Positions 36,001 through 48,000 of a stretch of DNA of 64,000 bases are shown here, piece after piece. The stretch lies in NCBI RefSeq assembly GCF_058153355.1, contig NZ_CM177019.1; one strand, written 5' to 3'. The position numbers are program-made. Numbering within the stretch: position 1 is the first letter of the stretch; each line of letters starts with the position of its first letter.

Positions 36001-39000
36001 TAATCCCCGTTATACCGAAAGTGGTGCAGTAGACTGTGACGTTTTTTTTGACGACAGGGCCCCGGCAGTCCCCTACACAGCCACCGCTGATGATGTCGCT
36101 CCGACGGGTCAGCAAATCTGGCAGGAACTGCAAAGCGGCAAATGGGGTGAGATAGCCCCATTCACTGTGACACCAGAAATGCTGGAAGCGGCCAGAGAGG
36201 CCAGACGTCAGGGAATTGAAGCATGGCGCACAGAACAGGAGGCGAAGCCGTTCACGTTTGAATGGAACGGTCGCACGTGGAACGCTGGCCCCAACTCACT
36301 GGGCCGCCTTTATCCGGTGGTAATGGCTGCGAAATCCGACATTGTACGGGACGTGATGACGTGGGGTGATGCCGATAATCAGCAGGTGAAACTGTCGATG
36401 CCGGAACTGGAAGAACTGGCGGCAGCAATGGTGCAGGCGCAGGTCGATCGCAACGATGAGATTTATCGCCGTCAGCGTGAAATGAAAGAGGAGCTGAGCG
36501 GTCTGGATGATTTGGCTTCAATTCGGGCGTTTGACGTTGAGTAATGAATAAGCCGCAACTGGCGGAATCACAGAAGACTGCTTTGCTTACCGAAGCGGAG
36601 TCTGTCATCCGGCCGCCGGGGCGTGCTGTCAGGCTGAACAGGGAAACGGATGAATCCGGGGAGGCCCGGGGGCGGGCCTCTGTTTTTCCGGAGTCAGTCC
36701 GGTCTGTGGTTTATGCGATGTGATTATGAATGGTGCAGTTGTGAGCCGTTTTCAGACAATCGCAGGGCCAGTACCTCGTCAGTCAGCTGACGGTAAATCT
36801 GCTGTTCAGTCTCACGCATCACCTGTGCACCGGCTTCCCTCTCCGCATCCGCATCACCGCTCAGACCTGATGCTTTCAGCCGGTCAGCCACCCTCTGAGG
36901 GTACTCATTCTCCAGCATCTCATATTTCTGCTCTTCTGCCTGCGCCCAGCGGTCAGCTTCCGTACGCTTCAGTACAGCATGCCATGGTCCCCAGAGGGAG
37001 AACCAGTCCGTAAATTCATTCTCTTCACGGCTTCTGACCATGGCTTCGGCAGTGCGGAGGTCATTTGCTGTCACTCCCGACACGCCATAGAAACGCATTT
37101 CCTTCACGGCAGTGGAGAGCTGAAGTTTCTCTGCGAGCATGGTCTGGAAGGCCAGGTAGACTTCTATCTCATCCACAAAATGGAGAGTTCTGACTTTATC
37201 CCGGGCAATGTCCTCCAGAATTTCGAGGCGGAACATTTCCCTGCCCAGGGAGAGCAGAGCGCCGGTATCATTATCGAAAAGGCCTTCTGATGCCTGATGG
37301 ACCAGGAGGGTTTTCCGGAGATTGTTCCATGTGAGCGCGACACGGTCCTCACAGCTCTCAGTGGCATCAGCAGCAACAGTGAAAGACTGCTGTCGAAGCT
37401 CCGCAGAGGCACTGAGTTTTTCCAGCCATGCAGCGACCTGTTCACGGAATCCGGAGGTATTGCGTGCAGAGACGGTATCGGAAAGGCGGTCAAGGAACGC
37501 GGAAAAGGTGTTGGCGTGCTCTTCATGTTCAAAAGCATGCCATATCTGTGATACATCAGATTGTTTGTTTTCCGGGAACCATGCTGTCACGGCATCAGCC
37601 AGGGGGCGATGGAGTGTATTCTGTTGTCCGTCACTCATGGAGAAGTAAATCCGTGGGCCGTGGTAGTCCGGCGAAGAGGTTAATCTTTGCAGGGCTTGCA
37701 GAGTGCGAGTCGACAATGGATTGTTATAAATATTAACATCTGCATAAATGTGCAGATTCATGATACTGTCTGGCAATGTGTTCAGCTGATTGTTAGGGAT
37801 ATATAGTGATTGCAGACGTTGTGGAAGTTCGGGCAGTCTGTGTAGTTGGTTTTCCCCAACGTTTAAAAGCCTCAGATTTTGAGGAAGGGGCGGTAGCTCT
37901 TGTAATCTGTTATCAAAAGCACTTAGTTCCTGTAGTTCACATGGTAATTCTGGTAAGGCAGTAAGCTGGTTGTTGCCAACAGAAAGTTTTTGTAGAGCCG
38001 GGGGAAGATCAGGTAGCGTCTCCAGGCTATTGAGAAGGGCTGAGAGTGACTGCAAGGAAGATGGAAGAGAAGGCAAACATGTTAAAACTCTGTTAAGTGA
38101 AACATCAAGAGCGACCAAGTGAGGCGGAAGAGCCGGGAGCCTGCTCAGTCTGTTATCGCTGGCTTTAAGTACAGTTAAGGACGGAGGGAGTTCTGGCAGA
38201 GAGCGTAGCTCATTGCTAGAGATGTTAAGTTCTTGTATGTGCGGGGGCAGGTATGGGAGAGAGCGTAATCTGAGTAAACTTAAATTGAGGGCTGGCTCTT
38301 GAAAAGCCAGACATATTTTCAGTAATCGAACTGCCTGTGTTCGGTCTTCTGTTGCAGCACCTTCCTTGGCCCAGTTATCCCAGATGCGGTGATAATCCGT
38401 GATATTTTGCTCTTCTACGGATAAATGGGATATACATCCTAAACCACAAAAGGAGCGGAAAAAAGAAGGATTGTGGGCAGGTTTCATTTATTATTGATCC
38501 TCATTGTTTATATATTAATATATTCGTGCAAATGGAGTGAGGATTCTTTAAAAAAACGCGCCTGTAAATAGTTAAGAACAGGAAGAACTGTTGGGGATGT
38601 GGCTGGCCGAAAATGAAGGGGTGAAGTTCTGGCTCAATGTGCTGACTGAACTGAAAAAACGCGGTTGGTCGCCCTACCTTTTCATCAAGCCAGTAGTCTG
38701 CCCACCACTGCATCATTTCTCTGCGCTTATCGAGATACTGAGCATGATTGTAAATTCAACTAACCCAGTGCGTTGACAAAAAATTAGCGCAAGAGGACAA
38801 AAAATCACCTTGCGCTAATGCTCTGTTACAGGTCACTAATCACATCTAACTCATTGATTAATAGTGACTCTAAATGTAGTGTTTTATCGCGTTTTGTAGT
38901 CTATTATTTAATCTGTAACAACGATAATACAATGAATTTTAATTGGTTTTCGTGATTTTGTCCTTCTTCTGACATGGAAGGACACCCGATGGATACCCAA

Positions 39001-45000: not shown

Positions 45001-48000
45001 CGGGGTATGTTACAAGGCGAGACGGGGTACAACGAACCAGACGTGTTTGCGGTCTGCCGTTTAGTCTCAGATTTCCCCTATACCGATCGGCAGCAGAAAC
45101 GGCTGTTTATTCGTAACTTCTTTACGCTTCAGGATCGGCTTGATTTAACCCATGAGTATCTGCACCTGGCCTTTGATGGTTATCCCACCGGGCTTGATGA
45201 GAACTATATCGAAACGCTGACCCGACAATTATTAATGGACTAATGCTATGCGAAAGATTTTTTTTCCGTTGTTACTGGTGGCGCTTTCGCCTGTCGCTCA
45301 CAGTGAAGGTGTACAGGAAGTCGAGATTGATGCACCGCTCTCTGGCTGGCATCCTGCGGATGGTGAAGATGCCAGCTTTTCACAATCGATCAATTACCCC
45401 GCGTCGTCCGTCAACATGGCAGATGATCAAAATATCTCAGCGCAGATCCGCGGCAAAATAAAGAATTATGCGGCGGCGGGTAAAGTTCAGCAGGGCCGGT
45501 TGGTGGTCAACGGTGCCAGTATGCCGCAGAGAATTGAATCCGATGGTTCATTTGCACGCCCTTATATTTTCACAGAAGGCAGCAACAGCGTGCAGGTCAT
45601 CAGCCCAGATGGGCAAAGCCGACAAAAAATGCAGTTTTACTCAACGCCGGGCGCTGGAGTGATTCGCGCGCGTTTACGGCTGGTTCTCTCGTGGGATACG
45701 GACAATACCGACCTCGATCTTCATGTTGTCACGCCGGATGGTGAACACGCCTGGTACGGTAACACGGTGCTGAAAAACAGTGGTGCACTGGATATGGATG
45801 TCACGACGGGGTACGGACCCGAGATTTTCGCCATGCCAGCGCCAGTTCACGGCCGTTATCAGGTATATATCAACTACTATGGCGGACGCAGCGAAACGGA
45901 ATTGACGACCGCCCAACTGACGTTGATCACCGATGAAGGATCGATTAATGAGAAACAGGAAACATTTATTGTACCGATGCGTAATGCTGGCGAGCTGACG
46001 CTGGTGAAAAGTTTTGACTGGTGATTAATGAGGTTACCTTTACTGCCAATGTTCAAGAAAACGCCCGATGACTTTCGCTATCGGGCGTTTTTACATGTTA
46101 ATTCAATCGTTCAATCACCATCGCAATTCCTTGACCGCCGCCAATGCACAACGTTGCCAGACCCAGCGTTTTATCGCGTGCCTGCATTGCATGTAATAGT
46201 GTGACCAGAATTCGTGCACCGCTGGCACCGATAGGATGCCCCAGCGCGATGGCCCCACCGTTGACATTCACTTTCTCAGGATCAAAGCCCAGCGTTTTCC
46301 CAACGGCAAGGAATTGCGCGGCAAATGCTTCATTGGCTTCGATAAGATCAATGTCTGCCAGCTGCAGCCCCGCCAGTTGTAACGCTTTTTGCGTGGCAGG
46401 CACTGGTCCCATACCCATCAATGCGGGGGGCACGCCACCGCTGGCATAACTTTTAATACGTGCCAGGGGATTCAGGCCTGCTGCCAGCGCCGCGGATTCT
46501 TCCATAATCACCAGAGCGGCAGCACCGTCGTTAATACCTGACGCGTTCCCGGCGGTGACAGTACCTGCTTTATCGAAGGCCGGACGCAATGCAGCCAGAG
46601 CTTCTGTAGTAGAATCTGGTTTCGGGAATTCGTCTTGACTGAAGACGAGGGTTTTCTTCCGGGTGACAACATTTACCGGGACGATTTCGGCTGTAAAAGC
46701 ACCGGACTCAATTGCGGCAACCGCTTTACGCTGTGAATGTAGCGCCAGTTCATCCTGCATTTCGCGGGTAATCCCGTACTCCTTAGCCACGTTTTCGGCG
46801 GTAATTCCCATATGATAACCATGGGTGGCGCACATCAGGCCATCGCGCAGGATTACGTCATAAACCTGTCCGTCTCCCAGACGATAACCCGATCGCGCTT
46901 TTGCATCGAGTAAGTAGGGCGCTAAACTCATATTTTCCATACCCCCCGCCACAATGCTCTGCGCCTGACCTGCCTGAATTGCCTGGGCGGCAAGCGCCAC
47001 GCTTTTCAGACCCGAACCACACACCTTATTGACCGTGAATCCGCACACCGTTTCGGCCAGTCCGCTTTTTAACAGTGCCTGACGCGCCGGATTTTGCCCC
47101 AGCCCGGCTTGCAACACGTTACCCATAATCACTTCATCGATATGTTGTGAATCGATTTTTGCGCGTTCAATAGCGGCCTGAATTACTGTTGCTCCCAGAT
47201 CGATGGCGCTGGTGGAGGCGAGTGAACCATTAAAACTACCGATGGCAGTACGTACCGCACTGACGATGACACAATTTTTCATTTTATATTCCTTCTGTCT
47301 GTAAAGTTGCCGTCAGAACAGCGTTAAACCAATGACGAAAATGACGCCGGAGAAGAGCAGGGCAGTGATGCAATAGCCCATGATGTCGCGGACACCGAGT
47401 CCGGCGATTGCCAGTGCTGGCAGCGCCCAGAACGGTTGTGCCATGTTCATCCATTGCTCGCCGTAGGCGATCGCCATTACCGATTTACCGAGATCAGCGC
47501 CCAGCGCCTGGGCTGCGGGCATCACGAACGGCCCCTGAATAACCCAGTGCCCGCCGCCAGACGGAACGGCGAAGTTAATCAGTGCAGAACTAAAGAAGGT
47601 CATTACCGGGAAGGTGTCTTTGTTCGCAACATTGATGAAGAATTCAGTAATGAGCCCACCCAGACCGGAGTGCTCCATCATCAGTTGGATCCCGGCGTAG
47701 AAGGGGAATTGCACCAGAATTCCGGCGGTACTGCGCGCAGCCGCGCTGATAGCACGCATATAAGCCATTGGCGTTTTATGTAGCAGCAGACCCGCAATCA
47801 TAAACATCAGGTTGACGGTATTGATGGTGATGTTGAAGCCATGTTCGCTGAAGTACATCGCCAGGTAAGCGATACCGAGTGCGCCGATGATCAACGTCAG
47901 GATGCGACTTTCCTCCAGTCGCTCGGATGGTGGGGCATCTTTCGGTAGCTGCTTCTGAAAATCAGCCTCTTCCATGAGTAGTTTCGGATCGATACTCACC

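Follow-up and report, generated by a model that had tools for sequence, protein, structure and literature searches.

A divided macroglobulin operon

In a 64,000-nucleotide stretch of contig NZ_CM177019.1 (NCBI RefSeq assembly GCF_058153355.1), the whole of which we refer to as the window, the genes yfaS, yfaQ and yfaP (38989-46024) encode a predicted bacterial alpha-2-macroglobulin (A2M) and two partner proteins, and comparison with other genomes identifies them, with high confidence, as the distal three-fifths of the conserved yfaA-yfaT-yfaS-yfaQ-yfaP operon, split by a prophage. The best overall explanation, which we regard as very probable, is that the three open reading frames (ORFs) are pristine, that the operon has been divided by a prophage residing in yfaT and that the encoded system is probably impaired. 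An initial annotation had pointed here to a possible functional anti-protease locus; the three coding sequences are indeed intact, but the locus is not a complete system, yfaA, yfaT and the native promoter appearing to be cut off from it.

The yfaS, yfaQ and yfaP genes

Counted from the ATG at 38989, yfaS (38989-43593, forward strand) is, as had been proposed, a single uninterrupted ORF of 1534 codons, a stop-free length far beyond chance, and its product is assigned to the type II (MagD-type) bacterial A2Ms. The stop-free frame as a whole spans 38974-43593 and includes a further in-frame ATG at 38974, the ATG at 38989 being the start used for b4500, the K-12 gene. The MagE-type gene yfaQ (43594-45243, forward strand) opens with GTG at 0 nt from the yfaS stop codon, and the MagA/MagF-type gene yfaP (45248-46024, forward strand) with ATG 4 nt after yfaQ. 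At the level of Pfam domains YfaS matches MG2 (1e-26), A2M_BRD (1e-17), A2M (3e-12) and bMG10 (5.5e-6), all above the gathering score, while YfaQ carries a tandem DUF2300 (6e-88) and YfaP a DUF2135 (YfaP_C) domain (3e-17). The uninterrupted frames, the minimal spacings and these domain-supported identities uphold the earlier description of an intact, tightly linked cluster. In a search of NCBIfam no model matched YfaS, YfaQ, YfaP or the upstream partner YfaT, and for YfaA the sole match was a 'hypothetical protein' equivalog; the literature on the function of E. coli YfaS likewise yielded nothing substantive.

The N-terminus of YfaS is signal-like, in that ANA|DD comes after a hydrophobic core spanning roughly residues 17-37, as judged by eye and by a Kyte-Doolittle scan only, and on inspection only the N-termini of YfaQ and YfaP have the same character. 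Gene callers disagree over the YfaS start, giving products of 1464, 1504 or 1534 residues. The start chosen by the NCBI Prokaryotic Genome Annotation Pipeline (PGAP) is a GTG at 39079, 90 nt downstream of the K-12 start, which gives 1504 residues and loses the putative signal peptide. The start at 38989 is the more plausible for YfaS as a periplasmic protein, because the alternative at 39079 would drop that peptide, and the 1504-residue product found in many annotations probably lacks its true N-terminus.

The operon break and the attachment site

The canonical operon is yfaA-yfaT-yfaS-yfaQ-yfaP, which in intact strains adjoins gyrA. In the window the similarity to this arrangement begins abruptly at 38966, and all that precedes yfaS is a 90-bp 3' remnant of yfaT (38966-39055, forward strand), comprising the last 30 of its 207 codons; its overlap with the yfaS start is 67 nt, just as where the operon is intact. 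Matches of intact yfaT, by tblastn and blastn, are confined to this interval, and no gyrA, yfaA or 5' yfaT sequence was found in a search throughout the window. The same 90-bp fragment is annotated by PGAP in strains VL7S7, UTAK-12 and 7_33_80A.

The breakpoint coincides with the core of a right attachment site (attR) at 38966-38980 (no strand assigned), which reads CTTcTGACATGGAAG in the window and conforms to a 15-bp imperfect core, CTT[A/C]TGACATGGAAG, defined by comparing the left junction of VL7S7, its right junction and an empty site. The exact part of this core, TGACATGGAAG (11 bp), lies at 38970-38980, 9-19 bp upstream of the yfaS ATG, and the attR core overlaps the likely yfaS Shine-Dalgarno sequence GGAAGGA (38976-38982); both this sequence and the start codon are preserved at the junction. 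The cluster had been described as lying beside a prophage, a placement that the attachment site confirms and refines, the junction being inside the operon itself.

The other side of such an integration can be followed in VL7S7, an enteroinvasive E. coli (EIEC)-like strain with an identical right junction, where one reads gyrA, yfaA, a yfaT cut to 186 codons, integrase, excisionase, prophage, ipaHa, the 90-bp yfaT remnant and yfaS. At the left junction of this strain about 23 C-terminal residues of YfaT are lost. The attR breakpoint and core are identical in the window, VL7S7, UTAK-12 and 7_33_80A; the left attachment site (attL) and integrase are seen in VL7S7 only. On this evidence a lambdoid prophage bearing a terminal ipaH gene would have integrated site-specifically into the 3' end of yfaT and would thereby have cut yfaS-yfaQ-yfaP off from yfaA, yfaT and the native promoter. 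The upstream partners, DUF2138 (yfaA) and DUF1175 (yfaT), are thus not joined to yfaS here except for the last 90 bp of yfaT, and this missing linkage is a secondary disruption, not the mark of a different family.

The integration site is not peculiar to this lineage. In 5201 of 5381 E. coli genomes a 120-nt empty-site probe (L002:3941-4060) matches without interruption, and in about 175 (175-180) of the 5381 it is split into two partial matches that have exactly the 15 bp of the core in common, because of which we count the bacterial attachment site (attB) in yfaT as apparently occupied in some 3% of the complete genomes of E. coli. yfaT has been reported as a gene disrupted by prophage integration (Bobay 2013, PMC3603311) and appears in a list of candidates for regulated gene integrity (Mageeney 2020, PMC7192596). 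The prophage of the window shares with the other yfaT prophages of these reports, and with effector-carrying lambdoid prophages of Shigella, EIEC and attaching/effacing (A/E) E. coli, the target gene, the breakpoint, the 90-bp remnant and a type III secretion system (T3SS) effector cargo on the attR side. In 7_33_80A (L020:5610-7590) nleA and nleG stand beside attR in place of ipaH. Judged by its junctions and their cargo, the yfaT attB has repeatedly been the target of phages with a T3SS effector cargo.

Comparison with K-12, distribution and selection

In K-12 MG1655 the gene between yfaT and yfaQ, yfaS (b4500), is annotated as a pseudogene. The K-12 locus is the same one, between gyrA and ato/rcsC and with the same gene lengths, including a yfaQ equal in length to the K-12 coding sequence (CDS) b2226, and differs in that yfaA and yfaT are contiguous there with the rest. 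From 38966 through yfaP the alignment of the window with K-12 is gapless at 95.4% identity, and the sole lesion of the K-12 yfaS is a change of codon 1368 from TGG to TGA (W1368*); the corresponding codon of the window (43090-43092, forward strand) is TGG (Trp), as it is in strain WCHEC050613. Close strains of the WCHEC050613 type, in which the yfaT site is empty, are 99.5% identical. The statement in the initial annotation that yfaS is a split pseudogene in K-12 was right in substance, the cause being one nonsense codon and not a frameshift.

The intactness of yfaS, on which that same annotation had based its functional reading, is no special feature of the locus. The yfa locus is found in 5355 of 5426 complete E. 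coli genomes, and in a sample of ten genomes spaced evenly down the ranking, with an accessioned CDS counted as intact, yfaS is intact in nine and frameshifted in one. Likewise, the cluster of full-length E. coli YfaS proteins has 40,950 member sequences, to which the YfaS of the window is 98% identical, and truncated forms appear as singleton clusters. By these counts an intact yfaS is the normal E. coli state and K-12 is the exception.

Within E. coli yfaS is, to judge from its codons, under purifying selection, because the window and K-12 differ by 183 synonymous and 37 non-synonymous codon changes. The YfaS of the window has no private substitution at columns where 15 diverse homologues agree. 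Relaxed selection was also sought on the window's own yfaS branch, where 7 synonymous and 2 non-synonymous changes could be polarised, these nine being too few to decide. The whole interval from yfaS through atoD (38966-49944) shows an identity of only about 95% with K-12 as well as with most E. coli, and a yfaS match of at least 99% identity occurs in just 44 of 5383 genomes. Diversifying selection specific to the yfa genes was considered as the source of this divergence of about 5% and rejected, as atoB-atoD are equally diverged and the effect is region-wide. The window does not occur in the set of complete E. coli genomes, but contigs of GCA_015332025.1 and SRR8656992 match positions 37674-51388 with 100% identity, and the presence of ipaH and of IS scars points to Shigella or EIEC.

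The thioester position

The initial annotation had held that absence of the thioester motif from the product would speak against an anti-protease system at this locus. A search of the whole YfaS protein of the window for CxEQ (C.EQ) found none. The protein has three cysteines, two of them within the putative signal peptide, so that Cys 1189 is the only one of the mature protein. The position homologous to the CLEQ of ECAM/YfhM is occupied by GVIN (yfaS codons 1069-1072; 42193-42204, forward strand) within the segment P-W-G-G1069-V-I-N1072-T-G-S, and Cys, Glu and Gln are all replaced. This homology is drawn from a profile of 16 YfaS homologues, which aligns ePyGgvvNTaS (PyGgvvNTaS) with PYGCLEQTAS of ECAM/YfhM (PDB 4RTD, 4ZIQ, 5A42) and matches the ECAM and Salmonella A2M structures with E-values of about 2e-12 to 5e-10; a single-sequence phmmer search of YfaS against PDB sequences gave only a marginal match to complement C5, ECAM and Sa-A2M being reached by the profile only.

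Could YfaS nonetheless be a thioester-dependent A2M that traps proteases covalently, as ECAM/YfhM or human A2M do? The A2M domain set and the profile homology to ECAM and Salmonella A2M (E about 2e-12) would accord with such a protein, but the lack of CxEQ, the single mature cysteine at 1189 and GVIN at the homologous position refute it at the level of sequence, and we give it practically no chance. The same motif, GV[IV]N, is common to all 19 sampled full-length enterobacterial-type homologues and was read in those of E. coli, E. albertii, Superficieibacter, Serratia and Yersinia. Because the enterobacterial homologues all read GV[IV]N, GVIN appears as a lineage state and not as a lesion of this strain.

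The missing motif, although just what had been named as counter-evidence, is weak and non-discriminating as an argument on function, because MagD of P. aeruginosa, which also lacks the thioester, still traps protease: this protein has no cysteine, is cut within the bait region and holds the protease in a stable trap (Zouhir 2018, PMC5764988; its placement in type II also in Robert-Genthon 2013, PMC3735191). In this context YfaS would be a periplasmic type II macroglobulin with a bait-region domain, and any trapping by it must be non-covalent, because the thioester residues are replaced by GVIN. The biochemistry of bait cleavage, of non-covalent protease trapping and of a MagA/MagB/MagF complex is available only for P. 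aeruginosa MagD (PMC5764988).

A simple equation of type II with loss of the thioester is likely an over-simplification. Among the 120 closest listed matches to YfaS 72 are full-length proteins (at least 1450 residues), and the intact motif CVEQ is kept by 31 of these 72, with GVEQ in 20, GV[IV]N in 19, SVEQ in one and no match to the search pattern in the remaining one. The rule 'type II = no thioester' thus does not hold for the whole clade, because 31 of the 72 listed relatives keep CVEQ, and the loss is graded and looks stepwise. Those listed relatives that keep GCVEQ include P0063, P0078, P0099 and P0104, and the CVEQ protein P0078 (P. citronellolis, GCA_003402515.1, L018:8001-12545) is encoded in a genuine six-gene mag operon.

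Relation to the mag operon

On the evidence of domains and gene order, yfaA-yfaT-yfaS-yfaQ-yfaP is the enterobacterial counterpart of magABCDEF of P. aeruginosa. YfaS has the domain set of MagD, shares with it the absence of a thioester cysteine and, putatively, a signal peptide, and is 54-56% identical, over 97-99% of the length, to A2Ms of mag operons from Pseudomonas species near P. aeruginosa, the comparison being with these proteins and not with MagD itself. No lipobox or transmembrane helix has been published for MagD. Two of these Pseudomonas A2Ms, P0078 and P0071, come from mag-type operons of six genes that adjoin gatCAB and mreB and in which the gene order is YfaP_C, DUF2138, PF06672, A2M, DUF2300, YfaP_C. 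The partners are colinear, DUF2138 corresponding to MagB and YfaA, PF06672 (now named 'MagC' in Pfam) to MagC and YfaT, DUF2300 to MagE and YfaQ, and YfaP_C to MagA and MagF and to YfaP; YfaA is a DUF2138 protein with an N-terminal hydrophobic helix, and YfaT belongs to DUF1175. The mapping of COG numbers to Yfa names is in part one that we assume, and it is corroborated by the Pfam content and gene order of the Pseudomonas loci.

Gene order together with the published sizes (Table 2 of PMC3735191) gives the same pairing: MagB (64 kDa, one transmembrane helix) with YfaA, MagC (24 kDa) with YfaT, MagD (167 kDa) with YfaS, MagE (62 kDa) with YfaQ, and MagA and MagF (28-29 kDa) with YfaP. Compared with the mag operon, that of E. 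coli has five genes and is without the leading magA-like paralogue of yfaP, and in the window, where the prophage splits it, only the counterparts of MagD, MagE and MagF are present.

The type I proteins ECAM/YfhM and Salmonella Sa-A2M (PDB 4RTD, 4ZIQ, 5A42, 4U48) belong to the same superfamily as YfaS, a relationship that includes the thioester-domain segment. They differ in kind, type I proteins being lipoproteins with CLEQ that are paired with pbpC, whereas YfaS has GVIN and is paired with Yfa/Mag proteins. No pbpC was found adjacent to yfaS, which is flanked to one side by yfaQ, yfaP and atoB and to the other by the yfaT remnant, ipaH and the prophage.

The P. aeruginosa mag operon protects against type VI secretion system (T6SS) effectors that target peptidoglycan (PMC12663445). 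YfaQ contains a SpoIID-like stretch that passes the Pfam cut-off (E 8e-6), and YfaT (L002:3467-4087) has a sub-threshold match to NlpC/P60 (E 6e-4; 20.1 bits, the cut-off being 23). The two folds are related to peptidoglycan, in agreement with that role of the mag operon.

Expression and proposed consequences

One question then is how far the separation of the three genes from the rest of the operon affects the system. In the lysogen yfaS-yfaQ-yfaP would be poorly transcribed or uncoupled from yfaA-yfaT. Impaired transcription is suggested because yfaS lies at least 39 kb from the native promoter region, which precedes yfaA, because ipaH, the gene next to the junction, points away from yfaS, and because a consensus scan of 38300-39300 found no sigma-70-like promoter on the forward strand, which is weak negative evidence. 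A second consequence could concern the stability of the protein. MagD associates with the inner membrane by way of MagB, is degraded when MagB is missing and requires MagE for its processing (PMC5764988). YfaA would be the MagB-type membrane anchor and, because MagD is degraded without MagB, YfaS may be unstable unless co-produced with YfaA. By analogy with the mag system we would put at about an even chance the proposal that the yfaS-yfaQ-yfaP system, although structurally intact, is impaired in the lysogen.

Several considerations weigh against this proposal. The left junction lies beyond the window, and the persistence here of yfaA and of a truncated yfaT is inferred from VL7S7. The result of the scan would be compatible with a promoter that is weak or not of the sigma-70 type, with an internal one or with transcription running on out of the prophage. 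YfaA could act in trans if expressed from the upstream half of the operon, and the dependence of MagD on MagB was established in P. aeruginosa, not in E. coli (PMC5764988). Finally, yfaS is intact in two other lineages with an nleA-type prophage at the yfaT attB, which, together with the absence of decay in the copy of the window, fits continued selection and hence continued function.

Such considerations lead to an alternative that we think rather unlikely, though it deserves to be weighed, namely that a fully functional anti-protease system is retained, the three genes being expressed from a promoter inside the prophage or at its edge, or from an internal promoter, and their products assembling with YfaA and YfaT made from the upstream half-operon. 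The three intact ORFs without a damaging change, the survival of the yfaS ribosome-binding site and start codon at the junction, the intact yfaS of the two other lineages with a prophage at this attB, and the 186-codon yfaT ORF kept at the left junction of VL7S7 with the loss of only about 23 C-terminal residues would all be in keeping with it. The distance of the native promoter across the prophage, the divergent orientation of ipaH and the lack of a promoter-like site on the forward strand in the scan of the upstream 500 bp argue in the other direction, and in an EIEC lineage with an identical junction yfaS has an internal stop at codon 1121, a sister strain having a deletion; moreover, the intact ORFs may simply reflect a recent insertion.

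Excision of the prophage would, in principle, restore the operon, the rejoined empty site then carrying CTTATGACATGGAAG. A further and improbable reading is that integration in yfaT acts as a reversible switch, which turns off or rewires the macroglobulin system in pathotypes bearing a T3SS and whose reversal by excision restores the operon. It would account for the site-specific integration at a precise core, for the use of the site in the 175-180 genomes described above, for the place of yfaT among the candidate cases of Mageeney et al. (PMC7192596), and for the fact that different phages at this site carry T3SS effectors (ipaH here, nleA with nleG in 7_33_80A). There is, however, no sign of excision or of its regulation, the VL7S7 prophage is riddled with insertion sequence (IS) elements and pseudogenes and is probably immobile, and in the window, too, an IS scar lies beside attR while the integrase end is beyond its edge. 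Were such a switch real, lysogeny by effector-carrying lambdoid phages (with ipaH in Shigella/EIEC-like strains, with nleA/nleG in A/E E. coli) would uncouple yfaS-yfaQ-yfaP from yfaA-yfaT and the promoter, and the acquisition of T3SS effectors would be mechanistically linked to the turning off or rewiring of a Mag-type envelope-protection complex. The account that we prefer remains that of intact genes in a prophage-split operon.

The prophage and other neighbouring features

The lambdoid prophage occupies 1-38965 (forward strand), its integrase end and attL lying beyond the left edge of the window. Replication genes at about 0.5-7 kb are followed by transfer RNA (tRNA) genes at 8.7 kb, a lysis cassette at 8.9-10.1 kb and, from there as far as 36.5 kb, genes for head, tail and tail fibres. 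The tRNA genes, tRNA-Asn(GTT) and tRNA-Thr(TGT), lie at 8691-8846 on the forward strand, just upstream of the lysis cassette (8931-10132). Compared with the VL7S7 prophage the relationship is mosaic, the common segments being only lysis, tail fibre and ipaH.

The ipaH-type gene (36724-38487, reverse strand) encodes a T3SS effector E3 ubiquitin ligase with the Pfam domains NEL and LRR_TTSS, is 99.7% identical to ipaHa of VL7S7 and forms the terminal cargo at the right end of the prophage, transcribed away from yfaS. Between ipaH and attR is a transposase fragment, an IS scar (38579-38665, forward strand), and a partial transposase is annotated at the equivalent place in VL7S7. A sequence resembling a MxiE box, GGCGCGTTTTTTTAAAG, occurs at 38546-38562 (reverse strand) with three mismatches to the consensus, some 60-75 nt upstream of the ipaH start codon; over the entire window chance alone would produce about 0.5 matches as good as this one. 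A MxiE-dependent promoter driving yfaS was considered and rejected, since the three-mismatch box points towards ipaH.

Beyond yfaP the atoSC-atoDAEB block is present in the window, as in K-12, and is absent from WCHEC050613 (L002:10283-14183) and 7_33_80A (L020:13783-15060), where rcsC directly follows yfaP. In the window atoC, the response-regulator gene of the ato system, which lies on the reverse strand, is interrupted in antisense orientation by a group II intron (51411-53717, forward strand). The intron comprises Rfam domains D1-D4 at 51411-51558, an ORF for a reverse transcriptase/maturase with HNH at 51894-53636 and domain V/VI at 53641-53717. The remnant atoC ORF (50140-51354, reverse strand) is without about the first 50 residues of the receiver domain, and short-read contigs of the same lineage end at the intron.

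Implications

The elements of this picture are all already described, namely the K-12 pseudogene, the type II family and its operon, the yfaT integration site and the effector-carrying lambdoid prophages, and the overall finding is an ordinary one that matters little, since it concerns core E. coli genes in their usual intact state. It does provide a useful correction to the earlier functional reading, which was too optimistic, in that an intact ORF does not here amount to an intact system, the adjoining prophage breaking the operon. The strains of this lineage are natural split-operon variants and, as such, could be used to ask whether YfaS needs the co-expression of YfaA and YfaT as MagD needs MagB.

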